From positions 1 to 44,076 of the forward strand of contig CAYHOV010000002.1 of the NCBI GenBank assembly GCA_964358615.1: 44,076 bases of DNA. The letters are read 5' to 3'. The position numbers and the translations under genes are program-made. The DNA comes from Candidatus Woesearchaeota archaeon. GTDB lineage: Archaea; Nanobdellota; Nanobdellia; Pacearchaeales; GW2011-AR1. Below the pieces are notes generated by a model. That model was not told where the DNA came from, ran no database searches, and saw only the letters and a list, made by a program, of their open reading frames with translations. Of this stretch, positions 15,501-40,583 are shown one piece after another (within the stretch, counting starts at the first letter, position 1; every line of letters begins with the position of its first letter).

Positions 15501-15619
15501 TCTCCCGACAGCTCAGAAATTCTATCAAATTTCTGGGACATTCAAAACTTACGTTTTGAAGTGATTTGAACTGCAACACTGGATTGAAATCCAGTGCATG
15601 CAATCTTCGATTGCATATA
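15501..15619 (-). other. tRNA-Arg trailer: degenerate collinear copy of the tRNA 3' two-thirds, interleaved with four 7-8-bp hairpins
   Basis: Hairpins at 15514-15535, 15541-15560, 15577-15596 and 15598-15616. Blocks shared with tRNA-Arg, in the same order: ctcccgacag (15502-11 vs 15622-31), gatttgaac(c)tgc (15563-74 vs 15632-44), ccagtgc (15591-97 vs 15663-69). Confidence 0.6.
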
Positions 15620-18243: not shown

Positions 18244-18486
18244 TTACTCTTTTATGCTTGAAGGAGATATAAAAATAATCGTATCTCCCCTCAAAAAAGT
18301 AAGGCCGTAGTTTCTTGTCTGTTCACCGTTCTCTAGCTCTTTCGCATTGTCGACCACAATATTGATGTGGATGTCAAACGCCAAGAGCTTCCCTACCATT
18401 TGCTTTCCGCTTTTCAGCTGGATAAGGACTTCTTTTCCTTTTGCTGCATTTAGCAAGTCCAACGGTCTCTCTATGCCATTAACCAT
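18244..18486 (-). CDS. Sm-like (LSm) archaeal protein
   Basis: Sm1 motif GKLLAFDIHINIVVDNAKE and Sm2 motif TFLRGDTIIFISP. Confidence 0.85.
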   Translation of the reverse strand: MVNGIERPLDLLNAAKGKEVLIQLKSGKQMVGKLLAFDIHINIVVDNAKELENGEQTRNYGLTFLRGDTIIFISPSSIKE

Positions 18487-18586
18487 TCTCTAACTTAAGA
18501 AAAACACTTTTTAAACCTTATTCTGATTTTGTTGTCTTTTTCCGAGGTAAAAAATTTAAAAAACTACTCAGCCCGAGTATCATAAA

Positions 18587-18762
18587 GACCCTCTTGCGTA
18601 CCGCACCTTAAAAGAGGTAGTTTGTTCGAACAATTCGCTTTTGATATTATTCTTGATTTGTGAAAATCAAAAAGCAAATTGTGAGTAGTCGGATTTTTGG
18701 AGGACAGGAAAAAATCAGCATAACAAACCGCAGTCTAAAGACTGCGGATTTTTTCCTGTATT
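18587..18762 (+). ncRNA. Candidate structured sRNA, copy A of an intergenic element family
   Basis: TATA-like AAATTTAAAAAA at 18552-63. Core at 18704-18759: outer stem ACAGGAAAAAAT/ATTTTTTCCTGT enclosing hairpin CCGCAGTC-TAAA-GACTGCGG, followed by a T-run. About 90 percent identical to copy C across the core. Confidence 0.4.
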
Positions 18763-18922
18763 AACAATAATAAGAGGTAAAAACCTAACAAAACTCACTG
18801 CAAACCGGTTAAGTTATCATTAATTAATAGTCCGCGTTACCAGACGACTATTAAGGGGAACAAAATGCAGATTATATTTTCAAAAAATAATTCTAAAAAA
18901 TTATAGAGAATTCCATTCAAGA

Positions 18923-18959
18923 TAAAAAAAGAAAAAAGAAAAAAGAAAAAATAAGAAAA
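18923..18959 (-). terminator. Oligo-T tract terminator (minus strand TTTTCTTATTTTTTCTTTTTTCTTTTTTCTTTTTTT)
   Basis: Lies immediately after the stop of the 199-aa gene. Archaeal termination typically uses T-runs. Confidence 0.5.
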
Positions 18960-18960
18960 T

Positions 18961-19560
18961 TTAAATTGCAGTTGCAGTAGCCGTGATAAGATCGCCTTTT
19001 GCACCAGGAACCGCATCTGAAGGAATTACTATTCTAAAGTCAATTCTTAACTTGTCTTTTGTATTGTTATATACAAAATCGTTACAGATATTTAGATCTG
19101 CTGTCGTATTTACAGGATAAAATGATCCTTCAGTAACATTGACAACAGTACAGCTTCCAGCTTCAGCATTTGTGAAGTTCCATTGATATTCAGGATTAGT
19201 TCCGCCGATGAATTCAGCTGCAGTTTTTCCAGCTTTGAAGGCTAAAGTAACATTAGTATTGCCAATGTTCTCTAGGGTCAAACCCGTATTGTTTGCACTC
19301 CAATTTCCACCTGTTACAGTTCCGCTAGCAGTATTAATTGTAGCATTTGCTTGTCCATAAGCTACCTGCCCAGAACCAAAGTTGAGGTTGTCTATCGTAA
19401 AATTAATCGCAGTCAATGATTCTATAGTTAAATTCACAGTCGCTGTATCTGTTGCATAACCTGTTATTGTCCCGACTCTATCAAGACTGACGAACATGTT
19501 AAAAACAGCTACAATCACTGCAATGATTCCTAAAAGAAGTATAAAGTTATTACTCTCCAT
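18961..19560 (-). CDS. Membrane-anchored/secreted beta-rich protein (199 aa), possible fibre or pilin-like subunit
   Basis: N-terminal hydrophobic helix (FILLLGIIAVIVAVFNMFV), then a T/N/G-rich beta-type sequence ending in RIDFRIVIPSDAVPGAKGDLITATATA. 11-nt overlap with the upstream 69-aa gene. Confidence 0.6.
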   Translation of the reverse strand: MESNNFILLLGIIAVIVAVFNMFVSLDRVGTITGYATDTATVNLTIESLTAINFTIDNLNFGSGQVAYGQANATINTASGTVTGGNWSANNTGLTLENIGNTNVTLAFKAGKTAAEFIGGTNPEYQWNFTNAEAGSCTVVNVTEGSFYPVNTTADLNICNDFVYNNTKDKLRIDFRIVIPSDAVPGAKGDLITATATAI

Positions 19561-19759
19561 ACCACCATACCTCTTGAGAATCCTGTGCCTGCGGATATAC
19601 GATCAAACCAATAGTTCCTGCGCCCATATCTCCGCCCCAGGCTTTCGCCTTAGTCGATTGTAGATCATTGACATTCAACGTCAAAGTCACTGCAATCGAT
19701 ACAACGGATAATACTATAGCGATTACTAACAAGAAAACAATTGTTTTATCTGATACCAT
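19550..19759 (-). CDS. Small membrane-anchored protein (69 aa)
   Basis: N-terminal TM helix (IVFLLVIAIVLSVVSIAVTLTL). Overlaps the next gene. A TATA-like box lies about 20-28 nt upstream. Confidence 0.5.
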   Translation of the reverse strand: MVSDKTIVFLLVIAIVLSVVSIAVTLTLNVNDLQSTKAKAWGGDMGAGTIGLIVYPQAQDSQEVWWYGE

Positions 19760-19844
19760 CTCTTTTGTTTTTTTATAAAATTTAGTTAATTATAGATATA
19801 TATTCTCCTTTATAAATATTTGTTTTTCTCGAGGACATCAAAAA

Positions 19845-20036
19845 AACAATGGGGCACCGCACCATAAATGGTGCGGTTTGTAAAGCCCCTTGTTTTTGGA
19901 AAAAATTTCACTCTTGTTATCTTTATTTTTTTATTCTCAAGAGTAAAATTTTTTGAGACAGAAAACGGGAAGTTGCGAAGGCAACTTCCGCAGCCTAAAG
20001 GCTGCAGTTTAAGACCGTTTTCTGTATTATTTTTTC
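19845..20036 (+). ncRNA. Candidate structured sRNA, copy B of the element family
   Basis: TATA-like CTTTATAAATA at 19808-18. 5' module at 19851-19889: GGGGC[ACCGCACCA-TAAA-TGGTGCGGT]TTGTAAAGCCCC. Core at 19958-20025: outer stem ACAGAAAACGG/CCGTTTTCTGT enclosing hairpins GAAGTTGC-GAAG-GCAACTTC and GCAGCC-TAAA-GGCTGC, followed by a T-run. Confidence 0.4.
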
Positions 20037-21253
20037 CTTCTAGCCACTAGTCTTCTCCAGAAAACAAACCACAGAACATTAATTAATATTAGTATGATTA
20101 CAAATATCAGAATTACTTCTTTTATACTGATTGTAGAACCACTTTTAGCAGAACCAATGACATAACCCACTCCCTGAATATCCATATTATTTTGAGTAAT
20201 CTTCAATACTAAGTCCCTATCAGTACTTTTTTTATCATATTTTACTAAAAGTTTTCCACGATATTCTCCCTCTTGCACGCCCATAGTATCCCAGAAAGCG
20301 ATTAGCTCTTTTTTGCTTAATGCAGGCACACTTTCAGTGGCAGATTTTATATCAGCCACAGAATGTTCTTTATCGTCATAAACAAGAAGATTCGCAAACA
20401 CTGTCTTAAATTCCTCATCCCACTTATTTTCAACAGAAATACTTAGCTTAACAATTTCTCCCAATCTAAAGTCGTTGACAAATATCCTATCTATTGCTAA
20501 ACTCTCTTTTCCAAGTTCAAATTCTTTTTCAAAATCCTTGCTCTCTCCGTCATAAAATACTCTGACTTTGGCCAAATAATTTCCAGGAGTAGCATTCACA
20601 AACCATTTCGCAACAAGTTCTGCCCTGGCTCCTGCGATTACCGAAGAAGAATCACTTTCAATGCTCGCAATTTTTTCATTCTTCAGATTATAGATATCAA
20701 TTGTCGCTTTTGCGTCGTTAATTCCAAGCTTGCCTCTATTAATAATAGGAACTACAAATGTTGCTGTAGAATTCTGCTCTGCATTTACAACACTTAAGTC
20801 AATATCAATGCACTTTCCAGGACAAGGCACGTAAACAAATAATTGCGAGACAACCGCAACAGTTGCTCCGACAAAAGTTCCAGATTCTTCATCTGTTTTT
20901 GGGATCTCCATTACTACAATTTCAGCAACATGTAAACCCGGCTCTTTAGCAAGCCTATCAGGAAGTTTTATTTTATATTTCAACTGTTTTCTTTCCTCAT
21001 CAAAATTAAATTCCATCAAGTTCCTCGACAGAATTATAGAATCATTTAATTCACCCTGGACATAGATACTGGTTTTCATATCTTTATTCTTATTATTGAG
21101 AACATCGAGTGTGATCTCCTGCTCCTGTCCTCCTTTGTAATCAAGACTAATTCTGCCAGGAGTAATTCCTAAAGCAGAAATAAGAGAGATATTTGCTAGG
21201 ATTAAAAATACAAAGACAGATACTGCTGCTAAAAATCTATACTTTTTATCCAT
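20027..21253 (-). CDS. Surface protein with signal peptide, tandem beta-sandwich (CARDB/NEW3-like) domains and a C-terminal TM anchor
   Basis: The start is moved to MDKKYRFLAAVSVFVFLILANISLISALG, with GGAGG a few nt upstream. C-terminal anchor VILIFVIILILINVLWFVFWRRLVARRKK. 8-nt overlap with the upstream gene. Confidence 0.65.
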   Translation of the reverse strand: MDKKYRFLAAVSVFVFLILANISLISALGITPGRISLDYKGGQEQEITLDVLNNKNKDMKTSIYVQGELNDSIILSRNLMEFNFDEERKQLKYKIKLPDRLAKEPGLHVAEIVVMEIPKTDEESGTFVGATVAVVSQLFVYVPCPGKCIDIDLSVVNAEQNSTATFVVPIINRGKLGINDAKATIDIYNLKNEKIASIESDSSSVIAGARAELVAKWFVNATPGNYLAKVRVFYDGESKDFEKEFELGKESLAIDRIFVNDFRLGEIVKLSISVENKWDEEFKTVFANLLVYDDKEHSVADIKSATESVPALSKKELIAFWDTMGVQEGEYRGKLLVKYDKKSTDRDLVLKITQNNMDIQGVGYVIGSAKSGSTISIKEVILIFVIILILINVLWFVFWRRLVARRKK

Positions 21254-21716
21254 TCTGCCTCCCGACGTATTTTCCTTCATCTTCGATTGTTTGAGTTTCG
21301 TTTGGGTCAAGCACAATATGTCCCGCCAAAATACCGCCTTTATCTCTTGTGATATTTACTCTAACATTCCCCATATTTACAAGTTCTGTATCATTATTCT
21401 CCCTTTCTATATTCAACCCGACCTCACTGTCGACGCTAAATCTATTTTCAAAACCCTCGAGCAAATTATTTCTCGCTTTCCAATAATAAACTCCGGGTGC
21501 TAATCTTAAAGACAGATTTTCCTTGATCTCGACATATTTTGCATCTGAAAAATCCGGACTCTGAGAAATCACAATAATCTTTGTGTTACTCGAATTAAAA
21601 TTCACAACACTGCCCAAAACATTTACCGAAATCCGAGGATAAGAAGCAAACACAAACAGCAGAATTCCAAATATTAAGATCGCCTGCACAATCACAATTA
21701 TTTTTGTAGTTACCAT
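21246..21716 (-). CDS. Membrane-anchored small protein (156 aa)
   Basis: N-terminal TM helix (IIVIVQAILIFGILLFVFA). Its ATG directly abuts the giant gene stop (TAAATG). Confidence 0.55.
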   Translation of the reverse strand: MVTTKIIVIVQAILIFGILLFVFASYPRISVNVLGSVVNFNSSNTKIIVISQSPDFSDAKYVEIKENLSLRLAPGVYYWKARNNLLEGFENRFSVDSEVGLNIERENNDTELVNMGNVRVNITRDKGGILAGHIVLDPNETQTIEDEGKYVGRQNG

Positions 21717-24700
21717 TTAATCAATTCCAGTATAAGGTTCCCCCAAACTTCCTGTAAAGACTACTGTTGAAAGTTTATTTCCAGCAGGTTCATCTGCAGG
21801 AATTTTTACAAGCAGATCAACAGAGACATTATTGCAACCAGATTGATAACCCGACGTAAAATTCATACGATTTATTGCCCTCGCAGTCAACAACGGAGCA
21901 TCATTCCACGAGACCAATGTTCCCGAATCTACAAAACATCCTGAAGTAGTATTTCTTATCTTAAATTGGAAATAACTGCTAGGATTTGAAGCAGAAGAAA
22001 ATAAGTTAGTAAAATTTACAGAAATATTTGTCTGAACATTACCATCATTCTGCAATACAAAAGGCCGAGGGTCATCTAAGGAGGTATTTTTGCTCTCAGA
22101 TAAATTCATATTCTCAAACAAAATATAATCCGTAGGAAGGCTTATAACAATATTTGATTGTATTGAAATATTTCTCGGAACAGCCCATACTCCATAAACT
22201 TGGCCATCATTCGCCCTCGCAGTCCAATTATAATAATAACCATTATCAATTAAATACTCTAGATAAGCAGGCACAGTGTAGTTCGTAGACGAATTAATAG
22301 TATTGTTTTCATAATATCTATTTCCAAGAGAGCAGGTCCCGCCTCCACTATACAAGCAAGTCAAATTTAATTCATAGCTCAAAGCATCACCATCATCGTC
22401 GCTGCCGCTATAATAAAATGTCGGCGTTCTATTTGTCGTAATATTTCCATCATTTGGAGAAATTAGCGTTACTGTCGGAGGAGTATTTAATATTGTCAGG
22501 TTCCCGCTAAAACCAAAACTCGAATAATCAAGGCCATCAAACAACCTCAGACCGCAGCTCCAATTCTCCCCTTTTGTAGTATTCGCATCATCAAGAACAG
22601 CGATAAACAAACTTCCATTTGCATAACTATTATTATAATCCATCGTCAAATTCAAAGTTCCATTATTATACCATCTGACTGTAACATTCATCTTGTTGAG
22701 ATCTACATCAGTGATATTTGCAAAACAATTCAGATCAGCTTTTGTCCTGTTGCTTCCATCTGTTGAATTTATCGTCACTGCAGGAGTATTTGGTGCGGTA
22801 TTTCCTGCGATTATATCTAATGTTCTTATGTCTGTCATATTCTCTCGAGCATTTGTATCTTTAACATAGGAATAATAAGTATAATCTCCTAAACTTAAAT
22901 TACTTTTATTGACGCTAAACTGCCATTGATCAACATCTGTCCTATGTAAAGAAGAAGAATATAACATCCGGATTTCATCATCTGTCAAGCTTCTATTCCA
23001 AATTCTTAATTCGTCCAAACTTCCATTTATTCCAGCTCCGCCAGTGCCTCCGCCAATATTAAGATTACCCAATGAAGAATTGACAACTCCGGTAAAATTA
23101 TCAGAAGTTCCTTCTACGCCATTCATGAATATCCTCAGGTCAGTTCCATTGTAAGTAGCAACTACATAATTCCAACTATTAAGCGGAACCGCAGAGAAAT
23201 AAGCTTTGTTATTGATATAATGATTGACATAGAAATTTAAAGTACCATCCTCAAAAAAGAAAAGCCCATAGCCATCAGTCCAACTATATACAGAAGTCTT
23301 CATAGCTAAAATACCATACTGAGTAGTAGATCCTACCTTAAACCAAGTAGCCAAAGTCATTTCTCTGCTGATATTCAGCGAAGGAGAATTAGAGATATTA
23401 AAATAAGGGCCGGTATTAACCGAACCAAAGCTATACGCTCCTCGATAATGTCCTCCAGAAATATCAAACGAAATATTACCCGTAGCTGTTGCATCATTAT
23501 TATATTTACTCAAATCTTTTACATAAGTGCTATTCTCACCTAAACTTGAAATATTATCAAAATCCATCATCAGCGCAAGACTCTCGTCGAATAAAGTATA
23601 GTTTGTAGAATTCCAATTGAATATAAATTTATCAATCCCCATTTCAGTTATAGAAACATTGAATATGAAAGATCTATTTGACGTCGTTGTTCCATTTGCG
23701 GGCGTCGGATCACTAAATGAAATAAGGGGATAAGCAGTATCAACAAAAATTCTTCGCGTTTCAGTAGAATTATAATTTCCAAGATTATCATAGGCATCTG
23801 CACTCAGCAGATAAACTCCGTCGCTAAGCCCGCTAAAATTTATAAATAATGGCGAGCTTGTCGAGTTGCTCCAATTTACAAGACTGCCAGTTGAATTGTA
23901 AAGATAAATACTTACATTTTTCAAACTCGACTCAATCGCAGTCACATTCGCTAAAATATAATTTCTATAGACAAAACCAGCACTATCTGTAGGAGTTACA
24001 AAATCTATTTGAGGCGGAGTGAGATCCCGGATAAACCAACGAGTCTCAGTAGTATTTTCATTACCTAAAGAATCTTTTGCCGACGAGAAATAATTATATA
24101 TTCCCTCGTCCAATCCGCTAGTTAAATTTTTAGTCTGATTCACTTGAAGATACCATTGGCTATTATTATATTTTTCCAAATTCATTTGATAATTTTGAAC
24201 AACTTCGTCTTCACTCAAACTTCTATTCCAGATCCTTACTTCATCAATCATTCCGTCCCACCATCCACCAGGCCAATCACCAAGATTTCCTCCAATCCTT
24301 ATGCTGCCAGTATTGGGAATATTTCCAGAATAAGCAGCATCTGTTCCTTTTTTGCCGTTGACATAGATTCTAAGTGTAGTCCCATTGTAAACTCCGACGA
24401 CCTGAGCCCATTCACCAGTATTGATTCCAGCAGATGCTTTCGGACTTCCACTTGAACCGACGTAAAAATATATAGCATCAGCCCAATAAAATCCCCAGCC
24501 ATTCCCCCAACCACTATCAGCATCTCTTCCAATTATAGTCTTATAGACGCTAAAACTATTAGCATAGACCCATGAAGAAACAGTCATCGCAGTCCCGTTA
24601 GTATTATTTACCGAACCTAAATTAATATAGTCTCCATTTCCGTCGAACTCGATCGCTCCGCCGTATTTTCCGCTCTTAGTTGGCTTTGCATTGATGATAG

Positions 24701-27700
24701 TTCCATTCGTCGAGCTAGCTACGTCAACAGCATAGGTCGAATTTTCACCGATAGCAGAATTATTATTGAAATTGAACATTGTCTTCAATGTCGAATCAAA
24801 AATTGTATAGTTCGTCCCATTCCAATTATATTTTACTTCTGCTAAATTTGCTTCTGTTATTGAGACATTAATTTGTACAGTGGTATTTGTCATCGCTGTA
24901 CCATTGGCCGGCGTAGGATCTACAAAATTTATTCCAGGAGGAGTCCCATCTCCTGCTTCTCCATTTAAAGTGATGCTGTTTGTCAATAATTTTGGCGGGA
25001 ATGGCCCGATAGCAGTAGTGAGATTCACCATATACTGGACATAATTTCTAGGCAATAGGCTAGAGATATCAGAATAAGTATTGTTTTTCACGACAATATC
25101 CCACCCGCTTTTATCTGAACAATCAGAAGTTGTACAAGATCTGATAGCGATGCTGATATTATTTATTGTACTATTAAAATCCGCGTCCCAGGAAATATTT
25201 TTCCATGCAACAGCAGTTCCCATATTTTTTACATTCGAATGATAATAACCTTCATACATTGAATTAGTTATAAAAATAAAATGAGAGGTCTGATTAAATT
25301 CTGCTTCAGAGTAATTTCCTAAATTCCAGCCGCTGAAACTGTAATTTGAATCTGCAAATCCGCATGCTCCAGAACTATCGCATGCTCTACAATTCCAGAT
25401 ATATTCAGAATCCTTTACAGAATAATTGCCGACGACATTTTTCATATCAAAACTAAAATTACTCGAGTTGGAAGTTCCTGAAATATTTTTTGTTTCATTC
25501 AAATACCAAGAACCGCCGATATTTGTATACAGAGAAATATTTACAAGATTATTAGTTGAATTAACAGAGCAATTGAGCGTGACATTTCCTAAAAGATTGA
25601 TGGTATGATTGTTATTCTGCGGATAATTTAAAGTCACATTAATTCCAATGACTTCGATAATTTCTTGACTTATTGTCACATTCCACGTCGAAGTCATATT
25701 GCCCACATTCATTCCCGCAGTCAGATTTGCAAAAACAAAAAACTCATAACTATCATTAATGTTTCCTGTAGCATTCACAAAAAAAGTCACAAGCCGTGAT
25801 TCTCCATTGTTCAAAGTAAGATTATATGGATTTTGTGTAATTGTATAAAATGGGGTTTCAGAAGAATTCATTGAAATCAATCCCTTGACAAATACTTGTT
25901 TTATTATTACATAACCGTCTCCTAAATTTATTCCAGATAAATTTGTCTGATTAGCTCCAGTATTATACGAGCCTGCTCCTCCCCCTTGTCCATGGCCAGC
26001 CCATCCTCCTCCGCCGCCTCCTGAATATCCTCCGCCGCCCCCTGCTCCGACATAAGTTCCTGCTCCTCCTCCAAATCCTCCGTCATGCCCACCATTATCT
26101 CCTGCTCCTCCTGCTCCTCCTTCTAAAAAACGTTTTCCTCCACGAGAACTACTGCCGCCGTTAGTTAACCAACCAGCTCCTCCTCCACTATAAACGCCCG
26201 CACCGCCTCCGCTTCCATTAAGACTGCCGACGCCAAACTGGCTGACTGTCCCATTCATTCCCTGAGTAGTATTTTGACCATCTGCATCACTTGTCGTCGA
26301 GTAATCGCCTCCGCCTCCGCCGCCTCCGGCGATGATCAATGGATTATTATTTTTTACTACAAAAGTTCCACCACCCCCGCCAACGCCTCTTGTACCTCCA
26401 GTATTGTTTGTTCCAGCTTGTCCGACTAATATTTGAAGTACTTCCCCCTGGACTAAATAAAAATAACCTTGTATTCTTGCACCTTTTCCTCCGGGATATT
26501 GCGGAGGATTTCTAGCACCTTCAGCTCCATAGACATCAATAAAATAAGTTCCATTTGCAGGAACAGTCCAATTTTGTATTCCATTGCTTACGTCGACAAG
26601 TCCGGATAAAGTTGTCCCAGAATAATTAGAATTGCATAAAGTTTGATTTGGTCCAAGTCTTCCGGATTTATTACAGGTCGTAAATCTATATTCTGTAAAA
26701 TTTGTAGGATCAAGACTTACATTTATCTCTCCGCAATTTCCACCAGAACAAGAAACATTTAAAGTCACATTAAATAGTTTATATCGCGAAACATTTACAT
26801 TTGTCGTCGGATAGATCAAATCCAATCCAATTCTGAGAGAAGTTAAAGTAAAAGTTACATTCGTAGAATTCTCATTTCCACGCGAATCATTACAATATAC
26901 TGTCCAAGTATTTGAACCTTCAACACTATACGCATTTGTAAAATTAGTCCCCATTGCAACAGCACTCGAGTTTGTCAATCCTCCGTCGATAGAATACCAG
27001 CAATAAGCTTTATTCAATTCAATAAAAGTATAATTTAATTCGCTGATGTTATAATAATAGATAGTATTCTGCGGATAGATTATATTCATCGCAGGATAAA
27101 TTACGTCAAGTATCTTCAATGGCAAGAAATCCGTGATTCCGCCTGTAGTGTAATTCGTATCGCAGATGCTGTCTCCATCGACATCAGTGCAATTATCTGA
27201 AAATCCCTGCGAAGAAAGATTTGTCCAGAAATTCCCGCCAAGATAACTTCCATTCACAATACTTGTTCCTGCTGTTTTTGTAGTGTTCCAGAAAGAAGCA
27301 GAACTGGTCGCAGAAATTATTTTATTTATAAATCCAATATAATTATTAAATATTCTATTCGAAGTACTCGATGATAATAAGATAGCATAGCCAGTATTAG
27401 AATAAAATGTGTTTGAAGTGATATTATTTAGATCTCCGGTAGCGATATTTAATCCGTCGCCAGTATTAGAACTGATTGTATTAGCAGTAACAATATGACC
27501 TCCATTAGTGACCATAGTTATTCCATTTCCAGCATTTGAACTAATATTATTTCCAGAAATATTGCTGCCTATTCCCGAGACATAAACTCCAGCACTTCGA
27601 CCATTTGAAATATTATTATTAAAGACAACAGGATTATTTCCAGCTAAACTAAGACCATAACCTCCATTTGAGCCAATAGTATTATTATATATAAAAAGTC

Positions 27701-30700
27701 CGGGAGTACTAGTTAAAGCATTTATTCCCCTAAGTAAATTAGAACTGATTGTACTTGATTTTATAGTAAGATTTTTATTTCCCCCATCAGTATATATTCC
27801 ATCCAGGCTATTGTTATTCGCAATAACAGAATCCAAAGTATAATTAGATAATGCAGAATAAGCACTGAAAAACCAAAATCCATAATAATTATAGCTAGAG
27901 TTGACATTCGTAAATGTAAGATTAGTAGTCTCTATGATAGATATAGCATTATTCAATAGAGTATCAGAACCACTGACCGTCACATTGGTAATACGTGAAT
28001 TAGATGCGCTAACTCCTACAAAAAGTAATTGTGAAAAATTTTGATTTGATATGTTCACAGTTTGATTATAATAGCCGATCAATCTTCTACCAGAACCATA
28101 GCAATTGTCAAATATGTCATTGTAGATAGCAGGAGCACCATAGGTATAGACATCCATCTGTGCGCTTTCTGTAAAATTAGAATTATTCATGACATTCGCA
28201 CCATTGCTATTAAGATAAATTCCATACTGCTCATTAGAATTAGCCGAGACATAATTAAGATTATTTTTAAGTCCACTGACCCTGAATCCATAAAGATTAT
28301 AATCCGCACTGACAGAAGTTAAATTATTGTTATTTGAACTGAGTATCCAAACTCCATATTGAGTATTATTATCTGCACTCATATTTGTCACAAGATTAAG
28401 ATTCGAAGACGTTGTAAGATAAGCCCCATTAACATTATTTATATTGACACTTATATCACTAAGATTATTCTTTGAAGAAGCAGTAAGATAAACACCAGTA
28501 TTCGAATTATTATCTGCAAAAATCGAATTCAGCAGATTATTATGGCTTGTATCCAAATAAACCCCATAGGTATTATTATGGGTAGTTATATTTGTCAAAC
28601 TTGAATTTCCTGCAGAAAGCAACGATATCCCGTCCTGAGCATTATAAATAGAAATAATATTCTTGAGCGTATCATTGGTGCTTGTCTGGATATAGACTCC
28701 TGCATAATAATTCCTATCAAATATCGAAGAAGTTATATTTGTGAAAGAGCTTGATGAAAAATAAATTCCATAATCTCCTCTGCTTGAATTTACATTATCT
28801 ATAGTTCCATATTTATTAGATAAGAAATAAATTCCATATCTGCCCAAGCCATTACCTGGCGCTGTTCCTTTTTGAACTCTGCAATTTTTTACATGAGTAT
28901 TATTATAATTTGAGGAAATTCCAGCATAAAGCGTCGACACAGTATTATTTCCGTAGATGATAAGATTATCCCAGCTCTGACAATCTAGAGTTACATTATC
29001 TGCAGTCACATTGAAGCAAGTAAAATTTGTAGAAACACTATTAGCTAAAGTATAGGTAGTATTGGCGATGCTGAGCGGTCTGCACGAATCAATATTTGTG
29101 CCCATATTCCTATTGAATATTACGCTCGTCGAATTAAAATTTCCAGCAGAATCATTGCAATATAAATTCCAAGTATTAGAACCCTCAACACTCGGCACAT
29201 CTGTGAAATTTGTTCCCATTACAGCATTGCTTGAATTAGTGATTCCTCCGTCAACAGAATACCAGCAGAAACCGCCGTCAGGATCATCAGAAGTATATGT
29301 CAAAGTAGATACATTAAGATACCATGTTGAGTTGGAAGGATAGACAATTCTCAGCGACGGTGCAATAGTCGAAATAAACTTTAAGCAGACAGAGATATTT
29401 TCAGGAGTATTATTGCAGCTTGAGACATGGGCATTTGTTTGATTCGACAGAGTGAATGCGCAGACCCAACCAGTAGGACAGGTTCCGTTTAGAGGCTGGA
29501 AACTTACATTCGCAGTATAATCAGTAGTGTTAGACCCAAAATAAATCAGATAAGGATAATCGTCACTGCTCATATTCCCCATCTCAGCATGAGCATTTGT
29601 ATAATTTGAAAGTCTGGCGATAGTCACGCCAGTATTATTTTTTACAGCGACGACGTTTCTCGTATCTCTGCAACAAGAAGAACGGCCATAATCCGCACTG
29701 CTCTGATTCACAACTTCTGCATGGGCATTTGTATAATTGCTCATTCTCAGCATCACGGTCCAGCCAGCAGGACAATTTCCAGTTACGACCTGGCAAGTCA
29801 GATTTGGAGCAATAGGATCGACGACATAATCCAAGTCTACATTTCCGATCATCCTCAGATCAAAAACATCCTCAGGAACAGTTAAATTAGTCAGATAGAC
29901 TTTATACCAGCTCTCTCCAGAAACATTTTCAAATACAGCAATAGTTTCATTCTGATTATTTACATAGACCTCGATGCTTGTAGAATTTCCATCACTCGAT
30001 CTTCCATAGATACTGATATCCTTTGAGCTGTCCAATTCCTGCTCAAACGTTACTCTCAGATAATGTCCACTAGGGATCGTCGTCCAATTATTATCCTGCG
30101 CCTTGACATAATCATATACTTCTTCGATAAAAGTTCGATTTTCGTCAAGATGTTCTGCTTTTGTGATATAGATCACATCATATGTCTGATTCGATAGATG
30201 TTCAACATTCCACTCAATATAATCAATAAAACCGTCGCTGTCAAGATCAGAAGCATTAAAATCAACTTCAACTCGCACAATCTCGCTTAAATTTTCCCGA
30301 GTGTCAATATTTTCAGTAGGAGAAATAATATCTAAAGTATTATTTATTTCTTCAGTCAAGTTCAAAGATATATTTTCAATGACTTGACCAGTCATAATTA
30401 CTCGGAAATCTTCAGAAGAATTTGTAATATTTTCAGAAACATTGTTGCTATTGATTAAAGATTCATTGCTACTATTGTTCTCAGAAATAATATCGCTAAA
30501 ATTATAAATATTAATACTATCATTAAAGGTCAGATTATTTAGATTACTTGAATTACTCTTATTAAGAATAATCCATTCACTTGAATTAGTCAAATTCTCT
30601 TCGAAAATAATAACCGAATTATTTGCAACATTGTTTGTAATATTAATATAACCATACTTGATTGCGTCTGCCCGTGTAGTATACCAATAAACTTTTATTC

Positions 30701-32210
30701 TTGAAATATAATCATTCTTTATTGTTGAACTCTCTATGAGAGTATAGGCCAAAACATTGCTATAATTTAATTCATCAGCCGCACCGACAATGACTTTTTT
30801 TCCCGTTCTCATATCTTCCTCAAAAGCCCGCGCAGCAGGAGTATAGTATTCAACCGCAACCTCGTCAACATTTTGTTCTTTAGCGATTTTATCTGCGTCG
30901 ATTATTTTCTTGTTCTCCACTTCAATAATGCTATCACTAAAATTATTTTCCTCGAATATTGAAGCGCCAGTTATTGGCCAAAACGAAAAAAAGCTGAATA
31001 ACTTACCGAATATTGAATTCTCCAGATTAAAAATAATCCCGCCGGTGATAGTTGATCCAAAATTATTGGACGTTTCTGCCTCGCTGAAAGCTCTTTCTGC
31101 TTCATTGCCGGTTTTGATAGTGATATTCTCTGCCTCTTTTGGGATTTCTATATTGACATTCTGATCTCCAATGATGCTTGCTTTCTTGATCCACTTGACA
31201 GGCCTTCCGATGACTGCTCTGAATTGCCTTACGCTGATATTTCCAGAATCTTGCGTCAGATTAAAAAAACTTTCATTTTTTAGAGTTTCATTAAACAGAG
31301 TATAATTAAAAAGAGTTTGATTTGTCTGATTAAGATTGATCTCGCTCTGGTTTATTTCAATACTCATAATACTCATATTTGTACTGAAATTAAAGAATCT
31401 CAAACTTTGATTAGTAATATTTTCATTTAAAAGACTTTCATTATTTGCAGTGTTTGAGATATTTAGAGTTAAGTTGCCCGACCCCCCGCTGCCAACAAGA
31501 GTTTCATTTTCAACAAGTATATTTTCAGAAGAATTATTGCCAGAATTGTTAGAACTGATATTTGTTTGACTGAAATTTTGATTTATTGTGGGATTTATTG
31601 TTTGGTTCAGGTCTACACTCTCATTGACCAAAATATTTTCATTTCCGCTATTATTTGATATAGAAATAATTTCAGGATTTTCAACTGGCTGTTCTGTTTC
31701 TGGATCGATATAAGCTGCTTCCTGCAATTGATTTTCAGTACTTGTATCTTGAGAATTAGTAGATTCTTGAGAGCTTGTATCTGGGCCTTGTGTAGAAGTA
31801 CTTTCAGAAGATGATGGTGTCTCTTCTGAAGATGTAGAAGAACTCTCCCTGCTTGAAACACTTGAACTTGATTGAGTCTCAGGATTATATTCAGAACTTG
31901 TCTCAGTTCCTTCTAAAACCAATCCAGATATTTTATTATAGACCGAGTCTGTTAAACCAACAATACTTTTCAAGATGACCTCTGGAAATTTTTGACTAGA
32001 ATTAATTTCACTATGTAGAACAACCATAAAAACAGATAATGAAATAAGGACGACAAGAAAGCTTGGTATCAAAATTTTTTTGCTTACTGAAAAAGTTTTT
32101 GCTTTTCCTAGATATCTTTTTTTTACCTTGCCATTTTTGTCTCGATAACTCTCATAGATGTAGGGGCCATAGGTCTTACCTCTTTTTGTAACAACTCTTT
32201 TATGACTCAT
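21717..32210 (-). CDS. Giant (3497 aa) mosaic surface protein: basic cytoplasmic N-terminus, TM helix, S/T-rich linker, Cys-bracketed NAH repeats, Ig-like modules, a long parallel beta-helix (PbH1-like) region, an ALK-like glycine-rich domain and two LamG/ConA-like domains
   Basis: Uninterrupted 10.5-kb ORF. N-terminus KRGKTYGPYIYESYRDKNGKVKKRYLGK followed by a TM helix. Beta-helix repeats (NTYGVYLDTSHNNL.., NTQYGVWILSSNNNNL..) at about 27230-29090. LamG-like ends IDEVRIWNRSLSEDEV (about 24200-24700) and LDELRIWNRSLTDDEI (about 22970-23480). Sequons throughout. Confidence 0.9.
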   Translation of the reverse strand: MSHKRVVTKRGKTYGPYIYESYRDKNGKVKKRYLGKAKTFSVSKKILIPSFLVVLISLSVFMVVLHSEINSSQKFPEVILKSIVGLTDSVYNKISGLVLEGTETSSEYNPETQSSSSVSSRESSSTSSEETPSSSESTSTQGPDTSSQESTNSQDTSTENQLQEAAYIDPETEQPVENPEIISISNNSGNENILVNESVDLNQTINPTINQNFSQTNISSNNSGNNSSENILVENETLVGSGGSGNLTLNISNTANNESLLNENITNQSLRFFNFSTNMSIMSIEINQSEINLNQTNQTLFNYTLFNETLKNESFFNLTQDSGNISVRQFRAVIGRPVKWIKKASIIGDQNVNIEIPKEAENITIKTGNEAERAFSEAETSNNFGSTITGGIIFNLENSIFGKLFSFFSFWPITGASIFEENNFSDSIIEVENKKIIDADKIAKEQNVDEVAVEYYTPAARAFEEDMRTGKKVIVGAADELNYSNVLAYTLIESSTIKNDYISRIKVYWYTTRADAIKYGYINITNNVANNSVIIFEENLTNSSEWIILNKSNSSNLNNLTFNDSINIYNFSDIISENNSSNESLINSNNVSENITNSSEDFRVIMTGQVIENISLNLTEEINNTLDIISPTENIDTRENLSEIVRVEVDFNASDLDSDGFIDYIEWNVEHLSNQTYDVIYITKAEHLDENRTFIEEVYDYVKAQDNNWTTIPSGHYLRVTFEQELDSSKDISIYGRSSDGNSTSIEVYVNNQNETIAVFENVSGESWYKVYLTNLTVPEDVFDLRMIGNVDLDYVVDPIAPNLTCQVVTGNCPAGWTVMLRMSNYTNAHAEVVNQSSADYGRSSCCRDTRNVVAVKNNTGVTIARLSNYTNAHAEMGNMSSDDYPYLIYFGSNTTDYTANVSFQPLNGTCPTGWVCAFTLSNQTNAHVSSCNNTPENISVCLKFISTIAPSLRIVYPSNSTWYLNVSTLTYTSDDPDGGFCWYSVDGGITNSSNAVMGTNFTDVPSVEGSNTWNLYCNDSAGNFNSTSVIFNRNMGTNIDSCRPLSIANTTYTLANSVSTNFTCFNVTADNVTLDCQSWDNLIIYGNNTVSTLYAGISSNYNNTHVKNCRVQKGTAPGNGLGRYGIYFLSNKYGTIDNVNSSRGDYGIYFSSSSFTNITSSIFDRNYYAGVYIQTSTNDTLKNIISIYNAQDGISLLSAGNSSLTNITTHNNTYGVYLDTSHNNLLNSIFADNNSNTGVYLTASSKNNLSDISVNINNVNGAYLTTSSNLNLVTNMSADNNTQYGVWILSSNNNNLTSVSADYNLYGFRVSGLKNNLNYVSANSNEQYGIYLNSNGANVMNNSNFTESAQMDVYTYGAPAIYNDIFDNCYGSGRRLIGYYNQTVNISNQNFSQLLFVGVSASNSRITNVTVSGSDTLLNNAISIIETTNLTFTNVNSSYNYYGFWFFSAYSALSNYTLDSVIANNNSLDGIYTDGGNKNLTIKSSTISSNLLRGINALTSTPGLFIYNNTIGSNGGYGLSLAGNNPVVFNNNISNGRSAGVYVSGIGSNISGNNISSNAGNGITMVTNGGHIVTANTISSNTGDGLNIATGDLNNITSNTFYSNTGYAILLSSSTSNRIFNNYIGFINKIISATSSASFWNTTKTAGTSIVNGSYLGGNFWTNLSSQGFSDNCTDVDGDSICDTNYTTGGITDFLPLKILDVIYPAMNIIYPQNTIYYYNISELNYTFIELNKAYCWYSIDGGLTNSSAVAMGTNFTNAYSVEGSNTWTVYCNDSRGNENSTNVTFTLTSLRIGLDLIYPTTNVNVSRYKLFNVTLNVSCSGGNCGEINVSLDPTNFTEYRFTTCNKSGRLGPNQTLCNSNYSGTTLSGLVDVSNGIQNWTVPANGTYFIDVYGAEGARNPPQYPGGKGARIQGYFYLVQGEVLQILVGQAGTNNTGGTRGVGGGGGTFVVKNNNPLIIAGGGGGGGDYSTTSDADGQNTTQGMNGTVSQFGVGSLNGSGGGAGVYSGGGAGWLTNGGSSSRGGKRFLEGGAGGAGDNGGHDGGFGGGAGTYVGAGGGGGYSGGGGGGWAGHGQGGGAGSYNTGANQTNLSGINLGDGYVIIKQVFVKGLISMNSSETPFYTITQNPYNLTLNNGESRLVTFFVNATGNINDSYEFFVFANLTAGMNVGNMTSTWNVTISQEIIEVIGINVTLNYPQNNNHTINLLGNVTLNCSVNSTNNLVNISLYTNIGGSWYLNETKNISGTSNSSNFSFDMKNVVGNYSVKDSEYIWNCRACDSSGACGFADSNYSFSGWNLGNYSEAEFNQTSHFIFITNSMYEGYYHSNVKNMGTAVAWKNISWDADFNSTINNISIAIRSCTTSDCSDKSGWDIVVKNNTYSDISSLLPRNYVQYMVNLTTAIGPFPPKLLTNSITLNGEAGDGTPPGINFVDPTPANGTAMTNTTVQINVSITEANLAEVKYNWNGTNYTIFDSTLKTMFNFNNNSAIGENSTYAVDVASSTNGTIINAKPTKSGKYGGAIEFDGNGDYINLGSVNNTNGTAMTVSSWVYANSFSVYKTIIGRDADSGWGNGWGFYWADAIYFYVGSSGSPKASAGINTGEWAQVVGVYNGTTLRIYVNGKKGTDAAYSGNIPNTGSIRIGGNLGDWPGGWWDGMIDEVRIWNRSLSEDEVVQNYQMNLEKYNNSQWYLQVNQTKNLTSGLDEGIYNYFSSAKDSLGNENTTETRWFIRDLTPPQIDFVTPTDSAGFVYRNYILANVTAIESSLKNVSIYLYNSTGSLVNWSNSTSSPLFINFSGLSDGVYLLSADAYDNLGNYNSTETRRIFVDTAYPLISFSDPTPANGTTTSNRSFIFNVSITEMGIDKFIFNWNSTNYTLFDESLALMMDFDNISSLGENSTYVKDLSKYNNDATATGNISFDISGGHYRGAYSFGSVNTGPYFNISNSPSLNISREMTLATWFKVGSTTQYGILAMKTSVYSWTDGYGLFFFEDGTLNFYVNHYINNKAYFSAVPLNSWNYVVATYNGTDLRIFMNGVEGTSDNFTGVVNSSLGNLNIGGGTGGAGINGSLDELRIWNRSLTDDEIRMLYSSSLHRTDVDQWQFSVNKSNLSLGDYTYYSYVKDTNARENMTDIRTLDIIAGNTAPNTPAVTINSTDGSNRTKADLNCFANITDVDLNKMNVTVRWYNNGTLNLTMDYNNSYANGSLFIAVLDDANTTKGENWSCGLRLFDGLDYSSFGFSGNLTILNTPPTVTLISPNDGNITTNRTPTFYYSGSDDDGDALSYELNLTCLYSGGGTCSLGNRYYENNTINSSTNYTVPAYLEYLIDNGYYYNWTARANDGQVYGVWAVPRNISIQSNIVISLPTDYILFENMNLSESKNTSLDDPRPFVLQNDGNVQTNISVNFTNLFSSASNPSSYFQFKIRNTTSGCFVDSGTLVSWNDAPLLTARAINRMNFTSGYQSGCNNVSVDLLVKIPADEPAGNKLSTVVFTGSLGEPYTGID
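25893..26699 (-). other. Domain within the giant protein (aa 1838-2106): TNF-like plus glycine-rich (polyglycine) module resembling the ALK/LTK extracellular TG domain
   Basis: FTTCNKSGRLGPNQTLCNSNY, GIQNWTVPANGTYFIDVYGAEG, LQILVGQAG, GGGGGTFVVKNNNPLIIAGGGGGGG, GGGGGYSGGGGGGW, DGYVIIKQV. A local GC-rich island in an AT-rich gene. Confidence 0.6.
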
Positions 32211-32240
32211 TCAGAAAAAAACCACCAATTTTCATATAAT

Positions 32241-32341
32241 TTTGTAGAACAACCAATTTAAATAGGTTTTGCTCTGCAAAACCTTTCATTCAATTAAAAC
32301 TAGACTTAAAATTTCCAGAAATTTTTGTAGAACAACCAATT
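32241..32341. repeat. Perfect 18-nt direct repeat (tttgtagaacaaccaatt) at 32241-32258 and 32324-32341, each abutting a TATA-like AATTTAAA/AATTAAAA box upstream of the giant gene
   Basis: Read directly. 83-nt spacing. On the coding (minus) strand each unit reads T(T)TAAATTGGTTGTTCTACAAA. Confidence 0.8.
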
Positions 32342-32389
32342 AAAAGATTAAGAATTCTCTTTGTTATCACCAACTCTCTCTTTCAAATC

Positions 32390-32512
32390 ACAAAACCCTC
32401 TTTGTATACTGCCCTTTAAAAGGTGTGGTTTGTTTGTTGGGTTTTGGGAAGACAGGAAAAAATCTGCATAACAAACTGCGGTCTAAAGGCTGCGGATTTT
32501 TTACTGTATTCA
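32390..32512 (+). ncRNA. Candidate structured sRNA, copy C of the element family
   Basis: Core at 32452-32507 aligns base for base with copy A. All three differences in the inner stem are transitions that create G-U pairs on the plus-strand RNA only. Confidence 0.4.
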
Positions 32513-32591
32513 TCAATTTCTCCTTGAAACCTCTCTATTTCTTTTCTCCAATAATCACAAAAACCGGGTTAATTTATTCGGTTTTTGGGAG

Positions 32592-32615
32592 ACAGAAAAC
32601 AATTTTGTTTTCTGT
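32592..32615 (+). repeat. Minimal member (copy D) of the element family: hairpin ACAGAAAACAA-TT-TTGTTTTCTGT with the family 5' flank TTTTTGGGAG
   Basis: Shares the TTTTTGGGAGACAGAAAAC...GTTTTCTGTAT termini with copies A-C. Confidence 0.6.
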
Positions 32616-32703
32616 ATCATGGTAGTGTCTTTTCTACCAGAAAGAGTTTTCAATTTCAGTTTATGCTTTTCTTTTTGCCTTTCCAGACCCTCAATTCTCT
32701 TTT

Positions 32704-33522
32704 TCAATTGTTTTTCTCTTTTATCCATCTTTCCTGTTGTTCTATTTTTTCCTTTACATAATCAAAGACTCTTTTTGCTCCTTTCAGATCAATTATCTTT
32801 TTTGTACTCTTGGCTTCTTTGGTTTTCCTATAAGAATCATAAATCTCAATCGAGCCATAGATCTTCTTGATTATTTTTCGCAATTCTTTATTATTAAATC
32901 TCTTGCATTTCATCAAACACTCAACAATATAGGCTTCCCTAAGCCGTAGGATTAGGGGATATGCCAGATTTTCAGACAACATCTCTTTATCTTTCTCAGC
33001 CATATCAATCATTTTTTTAATTAACTGGAGTGAAGATAGAGTAGTCTCAAAATGAAATTTTAGATTTTTCTGATTTAATTCAGTTTTTTTGTATTTTTCG
33101 ACCAACTCCTTGTTCAATATCGCTTTTGCTTCCACAATCATGGCCAGCCAGGGAAGAATATTTTCTTTAAGCTGTTCTTCTAATCTCTCCTGCGAGATGA
33201 GAATAATTTTATACTTTCCTCTATCAATTTCAAGGTTAGTACTATTTGTGACTGCCAAAATATCAACATCGCTCTCGATAGTCTGTTCGCCTCGCGCATA
33301 GCTTCCTACAAGATATAGTCCTTTTATCTCAGACAAATATTTAGACAGAAATAAGAAAACATCTCGCTCTAGACTTTTTAGATTATTTGGTTTTCTGACT
33401 AGGATTATTCTGGCCTCTCCATTGATCCATTCCCTCGGCAAAACCACTCCTGCTGAATTTCCTACGCGTACAATAGGCCTTATCAATTCTATTTTTTCCA
33501 TTTTATTTTTATTAGATTGCAA
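32704..33522 (-). CDS. Fusion protein: AbrB/SpoVT-like N-terminal domain, nucleotidyltransferase, helical C-terminal domain
   Basis: IVRVGNSAGVVLPREWINGEARIILV (AbrB-like). LYLVGSYARGEQTIESDVDILAV (NTase G-S..D.D motif). About 150-aa helical tail. The true start may be the internal MEKIELIRP. Confidence 0.65.
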   Translation of the reverse strand: MQSNKNKMEKIELIRPIVRVGNSAGVVLPREWINGEARIILVRKPNNLKSLERDVFLFLSKYLSEIKGLYLVGSYARGEQTIESDVDILAVTNSTNLEIDRGKYKIILISQERLEEQLKENILPWLAMIVEAKAILNKELVEKYKKTELNQKNLKFHFETTLSSLQLIKKMIDMAEKDKEMLSENLAYPLILRLREAYIVECLMKCKRFNNKELRKIIKKIYGSIEIYDSYRKTKEAKSTKKIIDLKGAKRVFDYVKEKIEQQERWIKEKNN

Positions 33523-40465: not shown

Positions 40466-40580
40466 GGGTCCCATAGTATAGTGGCAGAACAGCTCTTTGA
40501 CGAATTCATGAGATTTCAGGAATTTCCAGAAATCTTGATTTCAAGATGGAGCAAGCCCAGGTTCAATCCCTGGTGGGACC
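40466..40580 (+). tRNA. tRNA-Val (GAC) with a ~44-nt intron (about 40502-40545)
   Basis: Acceptor GGUCCCA/UGGGACC plus A. D arm GUAU-AGUGGCA-GAAC (one mismatch). Anticodon stem GCUCU/GGAGC, loop UUGACG.. T arm CCAGG-UUCAAUC-CCUGG. The intron boundaries and anticodon assignment are hand-derived and less certain. Confidence 0.65.
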
Positions 40581-40583
40581 ATA

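Follow-up and report, generated by a model that had tools for sequence, protein, structure and literature searches.

The four structured intergenic elements A to D in the window, the whole 44,076-nucleotide stretch of archaeal DNA analysed here, are probably (about 60%, by our estimate) copies of a small, non-coding, modular hairpin repeat that occurs throughout the DPANN archaea and behaves as non-autonomous mobile DNA. Its copies have precise ends and have spread to sites that are unrelated; the repeat is common to many lineages and of unusual design, with an invariant hairpin, no inverted ends and no duplications. The genomes of DPANN archaea are tiny, and these organisms presumably rely on contacts between their cell surface and their hosts. 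The repeat offers a concrete route to surface-protein variation between strains, since direct copies bound cassettes and one recombinant junction has been caught in the window. It can also pass for a small RNA (sRNA) gene, and its 26-nt core hairpin serves as a specific marker for further copies and, eventually, for the mobilising enzyme. In a review of MITEs in prokaryotes the archaeal examples are confined to Sulfolobus, Halobacterium, Haloquadratum and Desulfurococcus (PMC10969869), so the DPANN repeat would be a new archaeal interspersed repeat.

Architecture of the repeat and of its copies in the window

Units are typically about 120 nt long, within a range of about 70-250 nt, and begin with ATCA followed by an A-run. 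The 5' domain comprises a closing helix, P1, around a nearly invariant hairpin, P2 (ACCGCACC-TTAAAA-GGTGCGG-TTTGT), the middle of the unit holds 0-3 extra hairpins, and in the terminal domain an outer stem, P3, with a conserved one-base bulge at its foot, encloses P4, a hairpin with a TAAA loop and T's after it. CATAA closes the unit in the family, ATTAA or ATCA in the window subtype. Extra hairpins sit in loops (L126, L337) and between domains, and hairpin insertion into loops is a typical growth mode of structured RNAs. The sequences of P1, P3 and P4 vary between genomes while pairing is retained, and such free covariation argues that hairpin formation is under selection. A census of 133 distinct helix versions gave 1125 Watson-Crick pairs out of 1159, and RNAalifold recovered P1, P2, P4 and a closing helix ATC/GAT; of 29 pairs, 13 show compensatory change. 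The analysis of the family used nhmmer and a symmetric helix parser.

The features of the window are as follows.

18555-18562, plus strand: TATA-like box TTTAAAAA, 24 nt upstream of the ATCA start of copy A
18579-18765, plus strand: copy A, with 5' domain, middle module and terminal domain (nhmmer E = 6e-07)
18579-18625, plus strand: 5' domain of copy A, with ATCA, P1 and a degenerate P2
18620-18663, no strand assigned: crossover interval in copy A, the window being identical to strain copy Y (L121/L122) on its left and to strain copy X (L125-L127) on its right
18626-18695, plus strand: middle module of copy A
Within copy A, plus strand: terminal domain, with outer stem ACAGGAAAAAATC/GATTTTTTCCTGT, inner hairpin CCGCAGTC-TAAA-GACTGCGG and tail ATTAA
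18795-18820 (about), plus strand: 5' half of a truncated mini-copy (TCACTGCAAACCGGTTAAGTTATC), homologous to the start of copy D (ATCACAAAAACCGGGTTAATTTATTCGG)
19809-19818, plus strand: TATA-like box TTTATAAATA, 28 nt upstream of the ATCA start of copy B
19837-20030, plus strand: copy B, with intact 5' domain, inserted long hairpin and three-way terminal domain (E = 2.5e-18)
Within copy B, plus strand: intact 5' domain, with P1 GGGGC/GCCCC and P2 ACCGCACCA-TAAA-TGGTGCGGT
19900-19957, plus strand: inserted long hairpin of copy B
Within copy B, plus strand: three-way terminal domain, with outer stem ACAGAAAACGG/CCGTTTTCTGT
32387-32512, plus strand: copy C, decayed (E = 8e-12)
32554-32620, plus strand: copy D, a complete miniature two-hairpin element (z = -6.3)
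Within copy D, plus strand: 5' part, with ATCA, a P1-like hairpin AAAAACCG/CGGTTTTT, no P2, then GGGAG
Within copy D, plus strand: 3' part, with an outer-stem hairpin ACAGAAAACAA/TTGTTTTCTGT lacking the inner hairpin, and tail ATCAT

Much of what a first-pass annotation had described from the sequence is borne out. The TAAA-loop inner hairpins are there, and all copies fold far better than shuffled sequences (z-scores from -3.7 to -8.6); the termini, held to pair as an 11-13-bp outer stem, form stems of 13 bp in A, 11 bp in B, 12/13 bp in C (one G.A mismatch) and 10-11 bp in D; and the core identity of A and C, put at about 90 percent, measures 88% over 75 nt. Its 5' module corresponds to the conserved 5' domain, and a profile built from relatives finds A, B and C alone in the window (nhmmer). 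The elements were correctly located, but family limits place the conserved ATCA start 3-8 nt earlier; the piece described as a 3' module of A belongs to the truncated mini-copy near 18795-18820; and the minimal copy D exists, although it extends over a complete two-hairpin miniature. Solo hairpins resembling D occur at other DPANN loci. The terminal motif is found five times in the window against 0.44 expected, and TAAA-loop hairpins there are nearly confined to the elements, which rules out a generic terminator of this organism. A T-run had been ascribed to the end of every copy, but it follows the stem in B only and lies inside the 3' arm in the others. At 8280-8305 the proposed fifth hairpin does exist (9 bp), yet it lacks the features of the family, and no family copy accompanies the second giant gene of the window, to which a link had been drawn. 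A 148-nt internal repeat of the giant gene is a domain duplication.

The window copies are old and partly decayed. P2 of copy A is broken, its 3' arm reading AGGTAG where GGTGCGG is expected. Copy C has many C-to-T changes, with three G-U pairs and one mismatch in P2 and three G-U pairs in the inner hairpin, the latter as originally reported; its relative L368, from the same metagenome, is intact.

Distribution, copy number and inferred mobility

The exact 26-nt core hairpin ACCGCACCTTAAAAGGTGCGGTTTGT occurs at 59 loci in GTDB genomes, all archaeal (Nano-, Woese- and Pacearchaeota or unclassified archaea) and none bacterial, and in 74 metagenome contigs, Hainich H43/H51 samples among them; in viral contigs there were zero matches. 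About 24 of these 74 contigs, or a third, end inside the element, so that the repeat is a place where metagenome assemblies break, and a 3.5-kb contig (L338) carries direct copies at both ends. Among GTDB representatives, a search with the pattern TGCGGATTTTTTNCTGTAT for window-type copies gave chance bacterial matches only, from which the source genome would lie outside these representatives; an N-containing inner-hairpin pattern proved too generic and returned mostly bacterial hairpins.

A signature of mobility is seen in the genome BMS3Abin17, which has 34 copies of 117-120 nt with a mean identity of 99.1%, unrelated flanks and invariant, sharp ends (ATCA...CATAA). The element thus shares with classical MITEs the trait of being small, non-coding, multi-copy and near-identical at unrelated sites. 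It has no terminal inverted repeats, however: ATCAAAAAG... at one end shows no complementarity to ...GGCATAA at the other, and the stems are internal to the domains. No target-site duplication, nor any left-flank consensus, appeared across the flanks of the 34 copies. About 140 copies, each taken with 330 nt of downstream sequence, included no autonomous element with the same ends, and the 8-kb pieces around copies (63 loci) yielded no autonomous partner, transposase-like neighbour family, recurrent tnpA/tnpB candidate or other candidate for a mobilising enzyme. Transposition is inferred from copy identity and unrelated flanks, and not observed, there being no empty site among the compared loci. 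The mobiliser would presumably be an enzyme acting in trans on the element as a folded single strand, which it would know chiefly by the invariant P2 hairpin and by the base of P4, which resembles P2. About 70 nt of the 5' domain are near-invariant across archaeal orders, which is unusual for selfish DNA and would suit a functional RNA or a protein-binding site as well.

The family was rightly called undescribed, being genuine and absent from Rfam 15, but it is no locus-specific set of small RNAs. In the window, tRNAs alone pass the Rfam 15 gathering score, and permissive scans of A/B, C/D, a BMS3Abin17 copy and a Pacearchaeota copy gave sub-threshold chance matches only, which rules out a known RNA family; the core sequence was not found in the literature. 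Other identities are ruled out as well: H/ACA or C/D sRNAs by the lack of a two-sided pocket, a conserved ACA or C/D boxes; the target hairpin of a diversity-generating retroelement by the absence of a reverse transcriptase; and a small ORF after AGGATG by its peptides of 4-17 aa, which are not conserved.

Relation to known structured repeats

Closest in general character are BOX, RUP and SPRITE of Streptococcus pneumoniae, which are likewise small, non-coding, multi-copy, intergenic and highly structured; SPRITE is terminator-like, and the three insert into one another (PMC10969869). They differ in being bacterial and unrelated in sequence, and BOX has mutually complementary ends and no counterpart of the 26-nt hairpin that stays invariant across orders, whereas the ends of the DPANN repeat are not inverted repeats. 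BOX is built of modules, with boxA, then boxB in varying number, then boxC, much as the DPANN repeat joins its 5' domain to its terminal domain with 0-3 extra hairpins between them. The REP/BIME repeats of Enterobacteria and Pseudomonas are hairpin-forming intergenic sequences, arranged in mosaics and conserved in structure, that can stabilise mRNA 3' ends and act as recombination substrates, and their presumed mobiliser in trans is RAYT, an HUH enzyme that recognises the single-strand hairpin. Structured intergenic hairpins, mosaic arrangement and use as a recombination substrate are shared with the DPANN repeat, but REPs are 20-40 nt long, have a GTAG head and are species-specific, unlike the defined two-domain unit of about 120 nt, and no RAYT-like gene was seen in its 63 loci.

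IS200/IS605-derived elements (such as the PATEs of Haloquadratum) and TnpB omega-RNA scaffolds resemble the repeat in their lack of inverted repeats and duplications, in a short conserved boundary sequence (here ATCA) and in subterminal hairpins of the same orientation, since P2 and many P4 bases share ACCRC...GYGGT followed by T's. Against this, no tnpA or tnpB was seen in the 8-kb pieces around the 63 loci, and P4 stands anywhere from 18 to 24 nt before the 3' end, at odds with fixed cleavage-site spacing. In IS200/IS605 a guide tetranucleotide pairs with the end at the cleavage site; here the four nucleotides 5' of P2 vary (TTTT versus GGGC) and the ATCA end is constant, which does not fit that rule. 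Rickettsia palindromic elements (RPEs), mitochondrial GC clusters and double-hairpin elements are G+C-rich hairpins of A+T-rich, reduced genomes, 100-150 nt long, multi-copy, of double-hairpin layout and of unknown mobility mechanism. The DPANN repeat, too, is a multi-copy, G+C-rich double hairpin in a reduced AT-rich genome, but whereas RPEs often insert in frame into genes, its copies are intergenic or clip only gene ends, and host lineages and sequences are unrelated. Integron attC sites, finally, share conserved ends around a variable centre, a single-strand fold with extrahelical bases and a position at cassette 3' ends; they differ in their RYYYAAC/GTTRRRY core and integrase-linked arrays, both absent here, and copies of the DPANN repeat are mostly solitary and dispersed over many contigs in either orientation.

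Surface cassettes, orientation and rival readings

In the window the copies do sit, as first described, at the borders of the surface locus and at its internal junction, but this tie does not extend to the family, for which an ORF of at least 800 aa lies within 2.5 kb at just 9 of 63 loci and copies are dispersed with no link to surface genes. Most neighbours are housekeeping genes, among them (names read from the ORF sequences) S6e, eIF2-gamma-like, MetK-like, endonuclease III-like and CDC48-like genes and tRNAs. No recurrent neighbour family or conserved synteny was found in the 63 loci; the recurring aminoacyl-tRNA-synthetase-like neighbours are paralogues at differing distances.

Comparison with a co-occurring strain, which has an 8.7-kb surface cassette (ORFs of 396, 156 and 1761 aa) between direct copies X and Y, demonstrates that the elements are homologous joints for gain and loss of surface cassettes between co-occurring strains. 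The layouts between direct copies are C/D-(giant, 156, 429)-B-(69, 199)-A in the window and X-(396, 156, 1761)-Y in the strain, and copy A is the recombinant of X and Y, with the crossover within 18620-18663. Cassettes bounded by direct copies in window and strain alike, and direct copies at both ends of contig L338, would also suit an integron-like system in which a recombinase recognises invariant P2 and moves element-bounded surface-gene cassettes, as would the geometry of P2, that of a tyrosine-recombinase core site with two 8-9-bp inverted arms and a 4-6-bp spacer, and the conserved bulge at the foot of P3. We consider such a system very unlikely. The single mapped crossover falls in a 44-nt identical stretch beside P2 and outside the spacer, where plain homologous recombination suffices; most copies elsewhere are solitary, beside housekeeping genes and in either orientation; no recurrent integrase lies nearby (63 loci); and the attC-type GTTRRRY core is absent. 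Nor do we give much weight to a broader idea, that the element is the nucleic-acid part, as a transcribed, structured RNA or as folded single-stranded DNA, of an undiscovered hairpin-directed DPANN system. It is similarly improbable that a conserved protein binds the invariant 26-nt hairpin within a system that both moves the element and exchanges surface cassettes between strains. If real, such a system would parallel, in archaea, cassette recombination of the RNA-guided or attC type, while being unrelated in sequence to any system known.

The elements had originally been taken for plus-strand sRNAs, and one may imagine structured transcripts of 120-200 nt with their own archaeal promoters that regulate surface genes, for example as antisense to the 3' ends of convergent minus-strand genes. 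This we regard as improbable and, on the present evidence, unsupported. The argument had been that substitutions preserve pairing only if the plus strand is the RNA, and copy C does keep its pairing by plus-strand G-U pairs (six, against no A-C) and folds at -38.7 kcal/mol on the plus strand versus -29.5 on the minus, a gap of 9 kcal/mol. But C is the only biased copy and the only exception to equal folding of both strands, and in the 1159 helix pairs of 122 distinct members G-U pairs number 15 and A-C pairs 19, so that no strand-specific wobble excess exists family-wide. Relative to L368, changes in C are dominated by plus-strand C-to-T transitions, five at CpG and two unpaired, and this mutational bias explains its G-U pairs as well as selection on an RNA does. 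The compensatory T-A to C-G change noted in copy B is correct, but a C.A mismatch in its stem, G-U if read on the minus strand, had been overlooked. TATA-like boxes do stand well placed before A and B, yet they are no feature of the family, since 7 of 72 copies have the motif at -34 to -22 while control offsets give 8 and 5, and copy C has no convincing TATA. Covarying helices, plus-strand T-runs after P2 and after P4, and the terminal domain of strain copy A', which overlaps a 1761-aa gene in antisense over its last 12 codons, would agree with an RNA; the broken P2 of copy A would not, and 34 near-identical copies beside unrelated genes in one genome are unlike a regulator of one gene class.

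A role in cis on the minus strand is unlikely too, though the least so of these alternatives. The element would be a structure in the 3' flank, where it would terminate the mRNA upstream of it or make that mRNA more stable, and would insulate the promoter that follows; it reads as stop codon, ATACAG... hairpin domain, P1/P2 domain and then TTTTT(TT)GAT. Every copy in the window has the stop codon of one minus-strand unit on one side and the promoter of the following unit on the other, minus-strand T-runs are T7 at the end of B and T4-T5 at those of C and D, and the tail of B provides the TAA at 20027-20029 with which the 429-aa minus-strand ORF stops. Of 15 window-type terminal hairpins, 13 point towards the 3' end of a gene on the opposite strand (9 to 0 in tandem regions), a sample that is small, not independent and inclusive of the five copies of the window lineage from which the idea arose. 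The larger alpha subtype has no such bias, with 26 co-oriented and 23 anti-oriented copies in tandem intergenic regions, and a further 23 copies lie between divergent genes, where a terminator is needless; moreover, T-runs suffice for archaeal termination, leaving the elaborate conserved structure unexplained. A minus-strand cis role could also be an exaptation of the mobile repeat. Within the mobile-repeat reading, which we prefer, the elements may in addition act as bidirectional terminators or insulators, since there is a hairpin plus T-run on each strand; terminator-like sites are called on both strands, the minus strand included. Two smaller observations may be added: the orientation bias of the window-type hairpins hints at function and not at neutral insertion, and the box TTTATAAATA is nearly palindromic and sits in the promoter region of minus-strand pilin-like genes.

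Hairpin repeats in the window and across DPANN archaea

The structured elements of the window are, with a probability that we place near 60%, copies of a hairpin repeat that is new, non-autonomous and spread across DPANN archaea, and that serves as a recombination joint at this locus. The window has archaeal gene content (TFIIB, ribosomal protein S8e, an Sm protein, and an intein-containing radical-SAM enzyme), and contigs from the groundwater of Hainich well H43 encode proteins identical to its own. All four elements reported in the first-pass annotation were found in its sequence, and they are described below on the strand that was called plus there, the minus strand being the coding strand for every gene in 18244-33522.

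Copy A, 18579-18765, plus strand: long element with a broken P2 hairpin in its 5′ domain
Copy B, 19837-20030, plus strand: long element whose tail provides a stop codon
Copy C, 32387-32512, plus strand: long element
Copy D, 32554-32620, plus strand: complete miniature unit without hairpins P2 and P4

The motif TTTKGRRGACAGRAAAA occurs five times in the window against 0.44 expected, the outer stems are 10-13 bp long, and folding is far more favourable for each of the copies than for shuffled sequence. A 5′-domain profile search of the 44-kb window matched A, B and C only. The copies all sit in gaps that separate the stop of a minus-strand unit from the promoter of the following one. The “3′ module” described after A is present and turns out to be the truncated start of a mini-unit similar to D, while the weaker fifth hairpin at 8280-8305 is unrelated to the family. 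A D-like 10-bp hairpin, TTTTTGGAAACAGAAAAC-CGCA-GTTTTCTGTT, at 17634-17657 lies within the coding region of a 294-aa P-loop protein, a single extra motif match that is within chance expectation.

Species-representative genomes were searched with the 5′ hairpin plus its trailing GGTTTGT, which returned chance bacterial terminators together with many archaeal matches containing an exact 26-mer, ACCGCACCTTAAAAGGTGCGGTTTGT. This 26-mer occurs at 59 genome loci, all in Nano-, Woese- or Pacearchaeota or in archaea unclassified by NCBI, and on 74 metagenome contigs, many of which stem from the Hainich wells H51 and H43; it was absent from the viral contigs searched and appeared in no paper in a literature search, and no subtype of the repeat matched a model in Rfam scans. 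The unit reads as follows on the plus strand.

5′ end: ATCA, then an A-run
5′ domain: helix P1 closing around hairpin P2 (loop TTAAAA or TAAA), then TTTGT
Alpha (common) subtype: the initial ATC additionally pairs with GAT of a conserved AGGATG
Middle: 0-3 extra hairpins possible
Terminal domain: outer stem P3 (a single bulged base at its foot) around hairpin P4 (loop TAAA or TGAA), then T’s
Tail: CATAA

The window copies belong to a second (beta) subtype, with GGGAG-ACAG...CTGT-ATTAA in place of AGGATG-Y-TCAG...CTGA-CATAA, whose relatives are found in a Pacearchaeota genome (L237), H51 bins (L261, L268) and H43 contigs (L355, L368, L391, L392). Extra hairpins of 108 nt (L126, 2967-3074) and about 48 nt (P4 loop of L337) sit exactly within the TAAA/TTAAAA loops of P2 and P4, places that apparently favour insertion or template switching. 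Solo D-like hairpins (T-rich, GAG, ACAG-stem...stem-CTGT, AT) occur in several DPANN genomes (L331, L353, L363, L365, L148, L221, L379). Between a tRNA-Arg and a phosphatase gene, a string of four hairpins (15505-15570, minus strand) resembles the family’s intermediate-hairpin modules (ATCA-CTTCAAAAC-GTAA-GTTTTGAA-TG-T-CCCAGAAATT...AATTTCTGAG), and 45 nt of it are 97.8% identical to an intergenic stretch of H43 contig L355 (3453-3496).

Dispersal of the repeat and the joint at the surface locus

Archaeon BMS3Abin17 carries 34 copies of 117-120 nt with differing flanks and a mean identity of 99.1%, all starting at ATCA and ending at CATAA, among which terminal inverted repeats, target duplications and a flank consensus are absent. 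They adjoin unrelated genes, including what we take, by reading of ORFs, to be S6e-like and eIF2-gamma-like genes. Orientation is unbiased among 136 distinct alpha copies (26 co-oriented versus 23 anti-oriented in tandem intergenic regions; 23 lie between divergent genes, 9 between convergent ones); neighbours of family copies show no recurrent family and no synteny. Of the 74 metagenome contigs, about 24 stop within an element. One contig, L338 (1-3455, 3455 nt), bears an element at both ends, with a 115-nt exact terminal overlap inside it, which leaves two possibilities, a circular molecule or a pair of direct copies with 3.2 kb between them; the 3.2 kb presumably encode, from the ORFs, a MinD/ParA-like ATPase, a chorismate-mutase-like protein and a tRNA-binding-domain protein. 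These features speak for mobile DNA. Since no autonomous partner was found at 63 loci and no empty site among the loci compared, transposition is inferred, not observed.

Contigs of co-occurring strains have the assembled order [408/429 aa] [69 aa] [199 aa] - X - [396 aa] [156 aa] [1761 aa] - Y - Sm, where X and Y are direct copies of the element flanking an 8.7-kb surface-protein cassette, and at this place the window carries just [199 aa] - A - Sm. Copy A matches Y without a difference to the left of 18620 and X, equally without a difference, from an A/G site directly after 18663 onwards; over the 44 nt in between, all three agree. Copy A therefore either arose by recombination between the direct copies X and Y or served as its substrate. 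Likewise, A on one side and C/D on the other enclose the whole 13.7-kb locus of the window as direct repeats, and B stands at its internal junction. The proposed tie to giant surface genes is therefore a structural fact in the window, where the repeats are cassette joints, but not a property of the family: an ORF of at least 800 aa lies within 2.5 kb at only 9 of 63 loci.

The giant surface proteins (71-7903 and 21717-32210) have several common domains at 28-53% identity, and the [396/429 aa][156 aa][giant] cassettes are paralogous between strains, with differing gene order. Directly upstream of the 3497-aa gene start lies a 36-nt direct repeat (32227-32262 and 32310-32345; 86% identical, 83 nt apart) with TATA-like TTTAAAT/TTTTAAT on the minus strand, a content compatible with tandem promoters or regulator sites, as which the repeat may serve; a 9-bp hairpin (32264-32284) stands between its copies.

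Strand and possible function

The first-pass annotation read the elements as a family of plus-strand sRNAs or regulatory elements tied to the giant surface genes; the underlying observation is confirmed, and this interpretation is only partly supported. The sequence of P1, P3 and P4 varies between genomes with complementarity kept, and RNAalifold finds double changes in 13 of 29 pairs. Tolerance of G-U pairs, the argument for a plus-strand RNA, would need G-U far above A-C; 133 distinct helix versions, parsed with G-U and A-C treated alike when defining helices, hold, read on the plus strand, 15 G-U and 19 A-C pairs next to 1125 Watson-Crick pairs, so the family lacks such an excess. In A, B, D and a BMS3Abin17 copy neither strand folds better than the other, and the inner stem of B has a C.A mismatch that had been overlooked. 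The structure is selected, with neither strand favoured. TATA-like motifs lie at archaeal promoter distance in 7 of 72 copies, no more often than at control offsets (8 and 5).

One copy, C, fits the G-U argument, with six G-U pairs, zero A-C and a plus strand 9 kcal/mol more stable. Its intact relative L368, from the same metagenome, shares its tail with C and its perfect inner stem with A, and it contains the 26-mer unchanged. Counted by hand relative to L368, C has seven C-to-T changes (five at CpG, two in unpaired positions) besides 2 G-to-A, 2 A-to-G, 1 T-to-C and 2 transversions. A bias towards C-to-T decay of the plus strand thus accounts for the G-U pairs without RNA-level selection, although such selection may have acted as well; a plus-strand sRNA function, the less likely reading, has no family-level support.

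Hairpin-plus-T-run signals are present on both strands: P2 then TTTGT and P4 then T’s on the plus strand, and the P1/P2 domain then TTTTTGAT on the minus strand, with a T7 run in B. Of 15 terminal hairpins of the window type, a small and partly non-independent sample that also covers solo hairpins in other genomes, 13 point towards the 3′ end of a gene on the opposite strand, and solo hairpins usually turn their CTGTAT side towards such an end. This suggests a terminator or 3′-end role on the gene strand for the window subtype.

Elsewhere in the window, an intein with a LAGLIDADG homing-endonuclease domain (11594-13813) interrupts the radical-SAM protein, and a 115-nt tRNA match at 40467-40581, made by Rfam and not by ARAGORN and long enough for an intron, is probably an intron-containing tRNA.
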